Shown here: positions 1 through 64,000 of the stretch, piece after piece
How positions within the stretch are numbered: position 1 is the stretch's first letter
Layout of the letters: each line of letters begins with the position of its first letter
Sequence record: NZ_CP049261.1
Strand: one strand, 5' to 3'
Source: a plasmid
Length of the DNA: 64,000 nt
The notes under the pieces: generated by a model
What the model saw: only the letters and a program-made list of their open reading frames with translations
What the model was told of the DNA's origin: nothing
The model's database searches: none
Translations under genes and position numbers: made by a program

Positions 1-2721
1 CGGATTTTGTACGACCTCCCGCTGGGCCAGGGCGAGCGACGCACCCGGCTGCGTACAGGGCTGTTAAATCTTCTACAGGCGCGAATGGGAAAAGCGAGCT
101 GGCGCGCCACCGCGCAGGGGCTGCGGGCTGATGAACTGGATAATGACCTCTGCAGGATGTTCCGACGCGAAGTGCTCGACGATAAACCGCTTTACGCGCA
201 GCTTAAGCAGGGTTGCGAGCAGTTTATACGTTACCGTGACAGCAGCCGGATCCCGCCAGACGATACGCAGTTACGGCTTCGGCTTATCATGGCGCTGCGT
301 CAGAAACTGGCTTTCGTTTGTCTGAAGGCCCTGAAGTCCGACCTGGTGATCCTCGATGAGTTTCAGCGGTTTAAGCATCTACTGGACGCTGAAGACGATA
401 CCGCGCGGCTCGCCACGGCCCTGTTTGAACAGAAGGAGGCGCGTGTTCTGCTGCTTTCCGCCACGCCTTATAAAATGTTCACGCTGGATAACGAAACCGG
501 GGAAGACGATCATTACCCGGATTTTATCCGCACACTGTCATTTCTGATGCGCGATCCGGCGCAGGTCAACCACGTCAGCGCGCTGCTTTCCGCTCACCGG
601 GCCGCACTGCATGCCGGTATGCCTGAAGGTGAAAAAGCACGTCTTCAGGATGCGCTTTTGCGTGTGATGTGCCGCACCGAAAGGATTTCTGATACCCGCG
701 ACCGTAACGCCATGCTCGTTGAAGTTCCCCGCATAGCGCCGCTGCAGGCCACGGATATCCGGCATATTCGTGCCGTTGATGCGGTTGCGGCCTGTGTGGA
801 CGCAGGCGATCTGGTGGAGTACTGGAAATCGACGCCCCATTTGCTCAACTTTCTGAAGCGCTATGCGCTGCGTAATAAACTTGATGCGGCTATCGATGCG
901 CCGTCACCTGCGCTCTCTGCGGCGCTGAGAGCGGCCCGCGATGAGTGGCTGACGCCCGGTCAGCTGGATGATTACCAGCCGCTTGAACCCGGCAACGCGC
1001 GGATGCGGCTTCTTTTTGAAGACACCATCGATAACGGGCTCTGGCAACTGTTATGGATGCCGCCATCGCTCCCGTATTACACACCAGGCGGCGTCTGGCA
1101 GGGGAAAACCCATCTGACCAAGACGCTTATCTTCTCCTGCTGGAATGCGGTGCCGGATGCTATCGCCACGCTCTGCTCTTATGAGGCAGAGCGCCGGATG
1201 GTCAGCGGCGCGTCGGTTACGCATCGCGAGCTTTATCAGAAAATCAAACCGCTGTTGCGGTTTGCGAAAGCCAGCGCGGACGACCGTCTGACCGGTATGC
1301 CAGTCATGGCATGGCTGATGCCCTCACCGGTCCTGGCGACGGCGATTGATCCACTCACGATGGCCTGTGCCGGGGATAACGGCCCGCTCCCGCTGGAAAC
1401 CGTGCTGGAAGCCGCCCGTGACATCTGCGAGACGCTTGTCGCCGCTTTACCCTCCAGCCCGGCGGAGGGCAAAGCCGATCCGCGCTGGTACTGGGCTGCG
1501 CCGGTGCTGCTCGATGCGCAGGGCGGGCTACTGGCGTGGTGTAAAGACCCACAAGGCTGGCGGGCGCTGGTGACGCCTGATGCGGATGACGACTCCCACT
1601 TCACCGCGCATCTGGAACAGCTGACAGACGCCGCCGAGGGACGCCTTACGCTCGGGCCGAAGCCAGACGATCTGGCGGACGTGCTCGCACTGTTCGCGCT
1701 TGGCGGGCCTGGTACCTGCGCATTGCGTGCGTTACAGAGGGTAGATCCGCAGACGGCGGGCGACAGCATGACCCTTCTCACCGGTGCGGCGACCATCGCC
1801 TCGGGGTTCAGAACCCTGTTCAACATGCCGGAGACCATTGCGATGCTGCGTGGCGCAAGTGAGGAGACCTACTGGCGTTTAACGCTGAAATATGGCGTTG
1901 AGGGCAATCTGCAATCCATGCTGGATGAATATGTCCATACGCTACGGGAATCGCCCGGCGTGCAGGGATCTGGCGTCGCGGCACAGGTGGCCACTCTGTC
2001 CGCGCATATCCAGTCTGTTCTATCGTTGCGTGTCTCCCGGCTGCATCTGGACGCGCTGGAGGCTAACGATGCGGGCTTTGAGCGTGTAGAGTTTTCGACC
2101 CGCTGCCGCTTTGCGCTGCGGTTTGGTGATATCCGGGATGACAATAACGACGCGCTGGTACGGGCAGAAAGCGTTCGCGATGCTTTCAATTCGCCGTTTC
2201 GCCCGTTTGTGCTGGCCTCCACGTCCATTGGCCAGGAAGGGCTCGATTTTCATACGTGGTGCCATGCGGTGATGCACTGGAATCTTCCCGCAAATCCTGT
2301 CGATTTAGAGCAGCGCGAGGGCCGGGTGCATCGTTACAAAGGGCATGCGGTGCGGAAAAATATCGCGCATGCTTATGGCATTGCGAGCCTTAAGGGCCAC
2401 AACGCGGGCGACCCGTGGCAAACCCTTTTTGCGCGGGCAGCGCAGGACAGAGCGCCTGGGCAGTCCGAACTTATCCCTTACTGGATCTTTGAGAACGGCC
2501 CGGCGCGCGTGGAGCGCCGTATTCCCGTGCTGCCTTACAGCCGGGAAACCGGCAAGCTCAAACGACTGAAGCAGGGGCTCGCGTTGTATCGCCTGGCGTT
2601 CGGACAGCCGAGACAGGAGGACTTACTCTCAAGTCTCAGCCATAACGCCCCGATCTCTGAAGATGCCCTTGCCGGAGGGCTGATATCACTTAAGCCGCCC
2701 GGCCGGTCCGGTAAAGCGTAA
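1..2721 (+). CDS. SF2 helicase, SNF2/RapA-like, 5'-truncated by window edge (at least 904 aa visible)
   Basis: Reading frame is open to nt 1. It carries a motif II variant VILDEFQRF, motif III LLLSATPYK, motif V/VI FVLASTSIGQEGLDF...NLPANPVDLEQREGRVHR. That closely mirrors the RapA helicase-C signature (NPxxLEQRIGRxxRxGQ). The C-terminal 150 aa are not recognisable. Confidence 0.7.
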   Translation, partial: RILYDLPLGQGERRTRLRTGLLNLLQARMGKASWRATAQGLRADELDNDLCRMFRREVLDDKPLYAQLKQGCEQFIRYRDSSRIPPDDTQLRLRLIMALRQKLAFVCLKALKSDLVILDEFQRFKHLLDAEDDTARLATALFEQKEARVLLLSATPYKMFTLDNETGEDDHYPDFIRTLSFLMRDPAQVNHVSALLSAHRAALHAGMPEGEKARLQDALLRVMCRTERISDTRDRNAMLVEVPRIAPLQATDIRHIRAVDAVAACVDAGDLVEYWKSTPHLLNFLKRYALRNKLDAAIDAPSPALSAALRAARDEWLTPGQLDDYQPLEPGNARMRLLFEDTIDNGLWQLLWMPPSLPYYTPGGVWQGKTHLTKTLIFSCWNAVPDAIATLCSYEAERRMVSGASVTHRELYQKIKPLLRFAKASADDRLTGMPVMAWLMPSPVLATAIDPLTMACAGDNGPLPLETVLEAARDICETLVAALPSSPAEGKADPRWYWAAPVLLDAQGGLLAWCKDPQGWRALVTPDADDDSHFTAHLEQLTDAAEGRLTLGPKPDDLADVLALFALGGPGTCALRALQRVDPQTAGDSMTLLTGAATIASGFRTLFNMPETIAMLRGASEETYWRLTLKYGVEGNLQSMLDEYVHTLRESPGVQGSGVAAQVATLSAHIQSVLSLRVSRLHLDALEANDAGFERVEFSTRCRFALRFGDIRDDNNDALVRAESVRDAFNSPFRPFVLASTSIGQEGLDFHTWCHAVMHWNLPANPVDLEQREGRVHRYKGHAVRKNIAHAYGIASLKGHNAGDPWQTLFARAAQDRAPGQSELIPYWIFENGPARVERRIPVLPYSRETGKLKRLKQGLALYRLAFGQPRQEDLLSSLSHNAPISEDALAGGLISLKPPGRSGKA

Positions 2722-2727
2722 CGCCGG

Positions 2728-63600: not shown

Positions 63601-63664
63601 GACCGTCCTGCCTGCGGCGTTCAGCCTGCTGCTTCAGCCGCGCCGGGGGCGCGCGTCAGAGTAG
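60614..63664 (+). CDS. RND multidrug efflux permease (AcrB/AcrD/KexD-like)
   Basis: 1016 aa, 12 TM with two large periplasmic loops. Intact. Confidence 0.9.
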   Translation: MKPTFNLSAWALAHQQLVSFFMLLIIATGVLCYEQLPRNEDPAFTIKTAVVSARWPGASVTDTTNLVTDVLEKKLQEIPWLDNLESETRAGTAVINVNLRDDTPPQAVPGIWNTLRNRMQDIASSLPQGVQGPVVNDEFDDTFGTIYGFTAEGYSMQALRERVEAIRRGLMLLNDVGKITLLGEPQEQIVIAFSPRKLAGMGLDITEVSDALKAQNAVEPAGTLRAAGDNIAIRVSGALTSEESLRAVTLHISGRYIPLTDIATVSRQPAEPPVPQFRVNGQPAIGLAISMAPTGNMLDFGQALNARMAQSAAQLPHGIEMVKVADQSTVVSEAVSGFVHVLVEAVLIVLAVSFVSLGMRAGLVVAAAIPLVLAMTFAGMMLAGIGLQRISLGALIIALGLLVDDAMIAVETMVARLEAGDSRQRAATWAFKTTAFPMLTGTLVMIAGFIPVGFAASSAGEYCYSLFVVVAISLLCSWVVAILFSPLTGTWLLPAQIKRHHNEPGWLARGYHRILQQALRHRLVTIGGALFALGVSVWGTTFMQGEFFPASDRPELLVTLSLPASASQTQTQNQVERLERALRGNTNIDRYSAYVGTGAVRFYLPMEILQDNENTAQLVVVAKDLQARDRLRRQLDTLMATQFSDITTRVSPLELGPPVGWPLKYRVSGPDYAQVQRLARALAGTLGTSPLTRDVNLTAGEPERVITLEVNQTAARAVGVSSQSLAQLLNTVWSGATVTTVRDNDRLVDVVLRGNNAERRDIATLSALRVPTASGSKVPLSEVATPVWGLDDPVIWRHQRLPFITVQTDLAPGLRAEATALGLRPAIDAFRARVPAGYRIEEAGAVAESDKGNRSVYRMLPVTLIVMLVLLMIQLRRFSRMLLALLMAPFGLPGVVLAMLPTGTPLGFVALLGIIALAGMIIRNAVILITEVDGNLQQGMDVNAAITTAAQHRARPIMLTACAAILGMIPISHQVFWGPMAFAIIGGLIVATVVTLTVLPAAFSLLLQPRRGRASE

Positions 63665-64000
63665 CGTGGTTTTTAAACCGAGAACCTGCCAGTCACCGTG
63701 GCGTTTAACCCAGGTGCGAAAGTGGTGAAACCGACCATTCAGCGGCTCACCGGCGTAAGTGCCGGTGATGACCACGCAGGTATCGATAATAATACAGTGC
63801 TCATCTTGCCGGGATTCAAAGGATTCACGCTCGATAGCCTGGATAGTAATGGCACCGCTGCTATGCAGGCCGATATCCTGCGCTTTGGTGACGCGCTGTC
63901 CGGCGTGATTGATAAAGAGCAGATCGTCGGCGATTAACGCCGTAAGGGCCGCCACGTCAGAGTTTTTCATGGCGGTAAAGAGCGTATCTTCGAGTTGCAG
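63656..64000 (-). CDS. SnoaL-like/NTF2-fold (DUF4440-like) small protein, probably truncated at window end
   Basis: The frame is open upstream of the annotated Met (63970) through to the window edge. Confidence 0.4.
   Translation of the reverse strand: MQLEDTLFTAMKNSDVAALTALIADDLLFINHAGQRVTKAQDIGLHSSGAITIQAIERESFESRQDEHCIIIDTCVVITGTYAGEPLNGRFHHFRTWVKRHGDWQVLGLKTTLL

Follow-up and report, generated by a model that had tools for sequence, protein, structure and literature searches.

The plasmid stretch and its broken genes

The sequence under study is a 64,000-nucleotide (nt) stretch of the plasmid record NZ_CP049261.1, hereafter the window, in which a siderophore operon (iucABCD-iutA), trehalose-synthesis genes and a number of other genes are interrupted by one-base frameshifts. 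In a comparison with a collection of plasmids, the window was found to be collinear with complete Cronobacter sakazakii IncFIB plasmids at 96.7–98.6% DNA identity, an example being pCs1-54664 (NZ_CP104109.1). The matching plasmids carry mgtA, an autotransporter gene, glgX-treY-treZ, hipBA, a SIP reductase gene and an MFS gene, together with iucABCD-iutA, parB/sopA (sopAB), repB, the omptin gene cpa and an RND efflux system. The collinearity and the presence of a RepFIB-type replication gene, sopAB, cpa and iucABCD-iutA identify the window, on sequence grounds, as a slice of a C. sakazakii pESA3-type RepFIB/IncFIB virulence plasmid, for which near-identical public contigs of about 130 kb exist. 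The gene order is common to the window and to pESA3-type plasmids such as pCs1-54664. However, the genes of the annotated pESA3-type plasmids are all intact, whereas 16 of the 47 genes in the window are broken by one-base insertions or deletions (indels).

The window was compared with 22 near-identical or related C. sakazakii pESA3-type loci, including one complete plasmid. They were drawn from independent NCBI, ENA and Logan assemblies, among them a SPAdes contig of 87x coverage. Near-identical contigs tile the window at 1–13398 (L017), 5628–28331 (L001), 18142–39888 (L007), 35567–51970 (L019) and 50614–64000 (L013), and the zone of densest indels was compared by blastn with L006, L007, L011 and L019. 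The tiling alignments are 99.7–100% identical, and nearly every difference in them is a one-base gap. Relative to the related plasmids, the window holds 52 private one-base indels, namely 51 deletions and a single insertion, a T at 34803–34806. The initial annotation, made from the letters of the window, had counted more than 30 single-base frameshifts, which is true but an undercount, with 49 of the 52 indels lying in coding sequence (CDS). It had also taken those that it checked for homopolymer contractions; this holds for every one of the 51 deletions, though not for the T expansion.

Substitutions are scarce. Five appeared in the merged comparison, of which those at 4258 and 30398 are private to a reference contig and not to the window. 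Just one isolated substitution belongs to the window alone; it lies in intergenic DNA at 9030, where the window has A and all eight covering loci have G. The remainder is an adjacent double substitution at 34906–34907 in iucA, within the dense zone; the pair (CCCGGG versus CCGTGG) can be read as an insertion offset by a deletion. Indels outnumber private substitutions in the window by about 50 to 1.

The siderophore operon iucABCD-iutA carries 32 indels (11, 5, 7, 5 and 4 in the order of the genes), where at least 15 breaks had been proposed before. The features of the locus are as follows, with protein lengths in amino acids (aa) after restoration of the reading frames.

32840–34048, minus strand: MFS transporter (ShiF-like), 403 aa; three deletions, at 33743, 33856 and 34019
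34090–34115: shiF/iucA divergent promoter region; A-run deletions at 34090–34091 (AAA to AA) and 34112–34115 (A5 to A4)
34144–34162, plus strand: Fur box, CATAACGATAATCATTATC, 17 of 19 positions matching the consensus; untouched by indels
34182–35921, plus strand: iucA, 582 aa; ten deletions, the T insertion at 34803–34806 and the double substitution at 34906–34907
35911–36856, plus strand: iucB, 315/316 aa; five deletions
36853–38591, plus strand: iucC, 581 aa; seven deletions
38588–39905, plus strand: iucD, 440 aa; five deletions
39928–42119, plus strand: iutA, TonB-dependent receptor, 731 aa; four deletions, at 40429, 40837, 41803 and 42011
42137–42166, plus strand: intrinsic terminator 3′ of iutA, with a 7-bp stem of which six pairs are G-C, followed by TTTTTATT; intact

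The Fur box and the terminator had been described as flanking the operon in intact form, and both are indeed free of indels (34144–34162 and 42137–42156), while the two promoter-region deletions in A runs (34090 and 34112) lie directly upstream of the Fur box. An open reading frame (ORF) of 401 aa at 41024–42229 was considered as a gene of its own. It has zero matches in the public gene index because it is a frameshift product of iutA.

Outside the siderophore locus, the following genes and one intergenic site are affected.

4584–6241, minus strand: methyl-accepting chemotaxis protein (MCP; 4HB_MCP_1), 552 aa restored; one deletion, 5148–5150, CCCC to CCC
6535–7333, plus strand: hypothetical 266-aa gene; two deletions, 6794 (GGG to GG) and 7124 (G5 to G4)
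10514–12459, minus strand: MCP (dCache_1), 648 aa restored; one deletion, 11519–11521, CCCC to CCC
14161–15416, minus strand: AAA-family 418-aa gene; one deletion, 15234–15236, GGGG to GGG
20109–20111: intergenic deletion between a JmjC-like gene and the autotransporter gene, CCCC to CCC
20468–23406, plus strand: autotransporter, 979 aa restored; one deletion in the poly-C tract 22116–22121, C7 to C6
23468–25540, minus strand: glgX/treX debranching enzyme, 691 aa restored; three deletions, 24365, 24839–24841 (CCCC to CCC) and 25493
25609–28138, minus strand: treY, 843 aa restored; two deletions, 26691 (C5 to C4) and 27083 (CCCC to CCC)
43622–44829, minus strand: sopA/parA, 399–402 aa restored; one deletion, 44759–44760, CCC to CC, at about codon 23
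47051–47667, plus strand: histidine phosphatase, 205 aa restored; one deletion, 47110–47112, GGGG to GGG
49720–50249, minus strand: GNAT acetyltransferase, 176 aa restored; one deletion, 49940–49942, CCCC to CCC

Five of these junctions (in the first MCP gene, glgX, the autotransporter gene, the histidine phosphatase gene and sopA) had been reconstructed by hand in the initial annotation, and each is a real one-base deletion in a G or C run within a few bases of the place proposed. The deletion at 44759 forces the sopA ORF of the window (335 aa) to begin at an internal ATG. The start of sopA/parA is variously annotated elsewhere, as 335 aa in three contigs and 399 aa in RefSeq plasmids, with a maximal ORF of 402 aa. 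The 335-aa version was rejected as a natural short form, the three calls having been truncated where a contig ends or a scaffold has a gap.

Spectrum and distribution of the indels

All 51 deletions shorten a run of at least two identical bases, and the enrichment of deletions in homopolymer runs exceeds chance. Runs of at least two bases make up 42% of the window and hold every deletion; runs of at least three make up 15% and hold 44 of the 51. Breaks had been expected in runs of three or more, and this is borne out apart from seven deletions in two-base runs. Similarly, the proposal that the breaks sit in G or C runs is right for 43 deletions, with the other eight falling in A or T runs. Lost G (23) and lost C (20) are equally represented. 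By their length in the reference sequences, the affected G/C runs are of two (6 runs), three (15), four (17), five (4) and seven (1) bases, and the affected A/T runs of two (1), three (4), four (2) and five (1).

The chance of contraction depends on the length of the run and on its base. In the zone 1–33700, one of 588 three-base G/C runs was contracted (0.2%), as were eight of 98 four-base runs (8%), two of seven five-base runs (29%) and the only run of six or more. The corresponding figures in the dense zone are 5 of 540 for two-base runs, 12 of 112 for three-base runs, 5 of 12 for four-base runs and 2 of 2 for five-base runs. Outside the dense zone, in both sparse zones, none of the 1102 A/T runs of at least three bases was contracted, including 38 runs of at least six, and all 19 sparse-zone deletions are in G/C runs. 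An association with Dcm or Dam sites was tested as a signature of methylation-related nanopore errors, and none was found, since CCWGG overlaps one of the 51 deletion runs and GATC overlaps none.

With respect to function, the indels are blind. Forty-nine of the 52 lie in CDS and three are intergenic, while non-coding DNA makes up 12% of the window; therefore there is no sign of selection, and the coding boundary is ignored. Promoter and intergenic DNA is affected as well, and iucA was struck 11 times.

A feature absent from the earlier description is the strongly uneven density of the indels along the window, dense at 33743–39604 and zero at 50001–64000. The window can be divided as follows.

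5148–27085: left sparse error zone; 12 one-base deletions, all in G/C runs of 3–7 bases in the references
27086–33742: error-free stretch covering treZ, hipBA, the SIP reductase gene and most of the MFS gene, with the dense zone as its sharp right-hand border
33743–39604: dense error zone; 32 deletions, one T insertion and the double substitution in 5.9 kb, 5.4 per kb
40429–49942: right sparse error zone; seven one-base G/C deletions
50614–64000: clean zone; 100% identity over 13,387 bases to the 87x short-read SPAdes contig (L013)

The dense zone spans the 5′ end of the shiF-like MFS gene, the iucA promoter region, iucA, iucB, iucC and iucD. Its left edge is abrupt, at about 33.7 kb, while on the right the density decays over about 10 kb, the deletions of the right sparse zone being spaced by distances that widen away from the dense zone (827, 408, 966, 208, 2748, 2351 and 2830 nt). 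The density is about 0.36 per kb to the left of the dense zone and about 0.68 per kb between 39.6 and 50 kb, and the variation between adjacent segments exceeds 50-fold. From 50001 to 64000 there are no indels, where 6.7 would be expected at sparse-zone rates (P = 0.0013), and the heterogeneity among zones for G/C runs of at least three bases is highly significant (chi-square p = 1e-16). GC content was ruled out as the cause of the unevenness because the clean segment at 58–64 kb (61–62% GC) is as GC-rich as the dense zone.

Consensus error weighed against gene decay and other sources

A restored sequence of 64,050 bases was made from the window by re-inserting the 51 lost bases and removing the extra T. 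In this sequence, all 16 broken genes become single ORFs of the lengths called in other assemblies. The annotated proteins of pCs1-54664 give single full-length matches on it, whereas against the raw window the frameshifted genes align solely as fragments that hop between frames. None of the 52 indels was shared when they were sought in the 22 related loci. Three runs are of equal length in pCs1-54664 and in the window and were considered as shared deletions; they were rejected, as substitutions interrupt those runs, and pCs1-54664 has zero CDS indels relative to the restored sequence. Likewise, the truncated MCP and truncated autotransporter products were sought in the public gene index and neither is recorded. 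The intact products of the window are widely recorded: mgtA, treZ, the RND permease and SDR have exact matches in about 850–1300 index blocks of public assemblies. The matching sequences are for the most part contigs between 50 and 200 kb in length. The initial annotation had pointed to mgtA and the RND pump as intact, and their products, with that of treZ, indeed recur exactly in about 850–1000 blocks.

Natural divergence in this plasmid family is of another kind. Over 50 kb, pCs1-54664 differs by 1228 substitutions and 13 indels, and two other related loci by 276 substitutions and 8 indels (L014) and by 182 and 3 (L015), in each case with no indel in CDS. It had been argued that real decay would leave mixed lesions, and the relatives bear this out. 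For instance, in a Logan assembly (SRR28516320, L004) a CAG-to-TAG nonsense change in the amidohydrolase gene, at window 8289, splits the product into 127 and 296 aa, a real-looking example of natural gene inactivation within the plasmid family. In a second related plasmid (GCA_052152015.1, L003), the segment 18914–22715, corresponding to window positions of about 5600–9450, has lost the block made up of the GST, amidohydrolase, hypothetical 266-aa and MCP genes and encodes instead a Tn3-family transposase (989 aa) and a Mu-type one; it is a case of natural structural variation in which a transposon was inserted or replaced the block. The lesions of the window relative to the references are one-base indels alone, without nonsense substitutions, insertion sequence (IS) elements or larger deletions.

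These observations make it very probable that the indels of the window are sequencing or assembly consensus errors and not gene decay. The earlier preference for assembly error is upheld by the comparison, in which the indels are private, run-length-dependent and, apart from the T, deletions only. They far exceed the substitutions (52 against one isolated and one double substitution), they run in one direction, are confined to homopolymers and depend on their length, and they are found in one assembly only. A base-calling or consensus step would drop one base from homopolymer runs, with a chance of loss that would grow with run length and be far higher for G/C than for A/T runs. Read depth, or the reach of polishing, would probably set how intense the error is in each part of the sequence. 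Starting sharply near 33.7 kb and thinning out slowly towards about 50 kb, the errors might outline the poorly covered end of a linear contig of long reads, joined or circularised afterwards; alternatively, the dense zone may be a stretch that escaped polishing. On such an account, the organism itself most likely has intact copies of iucABCD-iutA, glgX-treY, the two MCP genes, the autotransporter gene, sopA and the other affected genes. Some points weigh against the account. Each indel was judged by comparison alone, the regional unevenness calls for an extra assumption (for example a contig end, patchy depth or incomplete polishing), and other chemistries could drop G/C bases too, as Sanger sequencing at low coverage may do through band compressions or reads of poor quality at their ends.

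Genuine recent pseudogenisation, in a mismatch-repair mutator or a long-passaged strain and by way of slippage deletions, would also strike many genes at mononucleotide runs, as is seen in pseudogene-rich lineages and mutators. Homopolymer slippage is a real mutational mechanism whose rate rises with run length (bioRxiv 10.1101/2021.08.23.457454), and accessory genes of plasmids can be dispensable in culture. Nevertheless, mismatch-repair-defective E. coli lines accumulated 30,061 substitutions against 5,324 small indels, about 5.6:1 (bioRxiv 10.1101/2021.08.23.457454), whereas the ratio in the window is about 1:50. A mutator is expected to yield both +1 and −1 events, yet 51 of the 52 indels share one direction, and outside the dense zone it would have had to spare every A/T run despite the 38 of at least six bases. 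Genuine decay mixes nonsense changes, IS elements and larger deletions, accrues substitutions and is inherited by relatives; here only one-base indels are found, with no build-up of substitutions and no lesion common to any relative. It would also have to place 32 deletions in 5.9 kb and none in a 14-kb segment nearby, and to strike iucA 11 times, which is pointless in a gene already dead. Decay is therefore extremely unlikely as the origin of the indels. Even harder to credit is a version in which the burst of 32 deletions over shiF-iucABCD alone is real, a localised, deletion-only slippage having shredded the siderophore locus while sparing the neighbouring DNA; its source could be repair synthesis of an error-prone kind, or slippage tied to the transcription of a strongly derepressed iron-regulated operon. 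It is also very unlikely, if a little less so than decay, that a few sites are real and the rest errors, as when the C7 tract of the autotransporter gene (22116–22121) is a phase-variable slipped-strand switch caught in its OFF state. Poly-C tracts of this sort, inside surface-protein genes, phase-vary in some bacteria, and in the left half of the window no other G/C run is as long. However, the tract is C7 in all ten near-identical assemblies that cover it, so that no variation in its length is seen among them, the C6 product is unrecorded in any indexed assembly, and the tract lies in mid-gene, at about codon 550, and not near the 5′ end. Moreover, the consensus-error model itself predicts the loss of one base from the longest run, as seen for the only run of at least six bases.

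Within consensus error, the platform is a separate matter. The spectrum best matches the residual errors of PacBio RS II-only assemblies, from which we infer the platform; the fit is best because the published PacBio errors are G/C deletions whereas the losses in a published Oxford Nanopore (ONT) R9.4 assembly are mostly of A/T. In genomes of medium or high GC content, assemblies from PacBio RS II alone retain systematic single-base G and C deletions in homopolymers of 2–12 nt, and E. coli showed A/T insertions as well, with proteins truncated even at high coverage (ARAMIS, PMC8574707). In accord with this, the runs affected in the window are of 2–7 bases, the deletions are mainly of G/C and the sole insertion is a T. 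According to the genome announcement for E. faecium ATCC 700221, polishing with Quiver left 561 such deletions in the assembly (PMC4888979); Quiver has a declared weakness in homopolymers (PMC4853030). The window resembles those assemblies in that deletions dominate, are mostly of G/C and truncate proteins, often with several hits per gene; it differs in its uneven density, from 0 to 5.4 per kb, where the PacBio papers describe a genome-wide scatter at high coverage. Another platform is possible, though we consider it a good deal less likely than not: Oxford Nanopore of R9 type, the flow chemistry of 454 or Ion Torrent, or low-coverage Sanger sequencing with G/C compressions. All of these under-call homopolymers, and the dense zone loses A/T bases and bases of two-base runs, as a noisy low-depth consensus would. 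In flow chemistries, the errors fall mainly in long homopolymers, whichever the base, and include insertions as well as deletions. In ONT R9.4 assemblies, too, false homopolymer deletions fragment genes and are exposed by close references (Kastor, PMC12007338; Homopolish, PMC8011154), on the principle that was applied to the window. Nevertheless, bases were lost mostly in A/T runs in an R9.4 assembly of a genome of comparable GC content, 59% (Kastor, PMC12007338), while the losses in the window outside the dense zone are almost all of G/C (19 of 19 in the sparse zones, against none in 1102 A/T runs of at least three), and the deletions show no link to methylation motifs (1 of 51 for CCWGG, 0 of 51 for GATC).

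Other features of the plasmid and use of the record

The left edge of the window cuts an ORF (1–2721, plus strand, running past the edge) that encodes the last 904 of the 1053 aa of a helicase. The full helicase matches ZacC of PADLOC end to end, and in related contigs (L017, 10682–17939) ZacC is followed by ZacB (605 aa), ZacA (DUF6361, 407 aa) and a phage-type integrase. By these matches, a complete Azaca anti-phage defence operon is predicted to be carried by the virulence plasmid. ZacABC is reported to cleave phage DNA only as a complex of the three proteins (bioRxiv 10.1101/2025.07.10.664194). On the minus strand at 30225–31828, treZ and the siderophore cluster flank a hipBA toxin-antitoxin pair, which is intact in the window and conserved across all related plasmids. 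The plasmid-borne mgtA has an upstream region of 567 nt (18339–18905). An Rfam scan of the whole window at the gathering threshold gave zero matches, so that no known family of Mg2+-sensing leaders was found, upstream of mgtA or elsewhere in the window; because the scan gave no matches, no structured RNA appears to be affected by the indels.

A 16.4-kb metagenome scaffold (HAYD20-1_SAMN10615952, ENA ERZ28587225; L019) matches window 35567–51970 with zero substitutions, its differences being limited to the deletions of the window and an N-gap of the scaffold. This match places the same plasmid lineage in a sequenced community sample. In GCA_033053885.1 (JAWLKV010000001.1, 2,005,586 bp; L001/L016), plasmid genes stand at 954588–990203, within a contig of chromosome size, and in a few other assemblies they are likewise found inside contigs of more than 0.2 Mb. 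In such cases the plasmid may be integrated into the chromosome, or the assembly may be chimeric.

Our study yields a warning on data quality and no new biology. The combination of indel-to-substitution ratio, direction, dependence on run length and base, privacy to one assembly and spread along the sequence constitutes a signature of artefact that can be reused without access to reads. Automatic annotation of the record would label 16 of the 47 genes in the window as pseudogenes, including the cronobactin/aerobactin-type siderophore operon, the trehalose-synthesis genes, two chemoreceptors, the autotransporter and the partition ATPase. It had been cautioned before that calling the strain aerobactin-negative or trehalose-negative from this assembly would be wrong, and such calls would indeed be unsafe. 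Analyses of virulence-gene presence or absence, of the pan-genome and of pseudogene load that draw on this assembly would be wrong at these loci.

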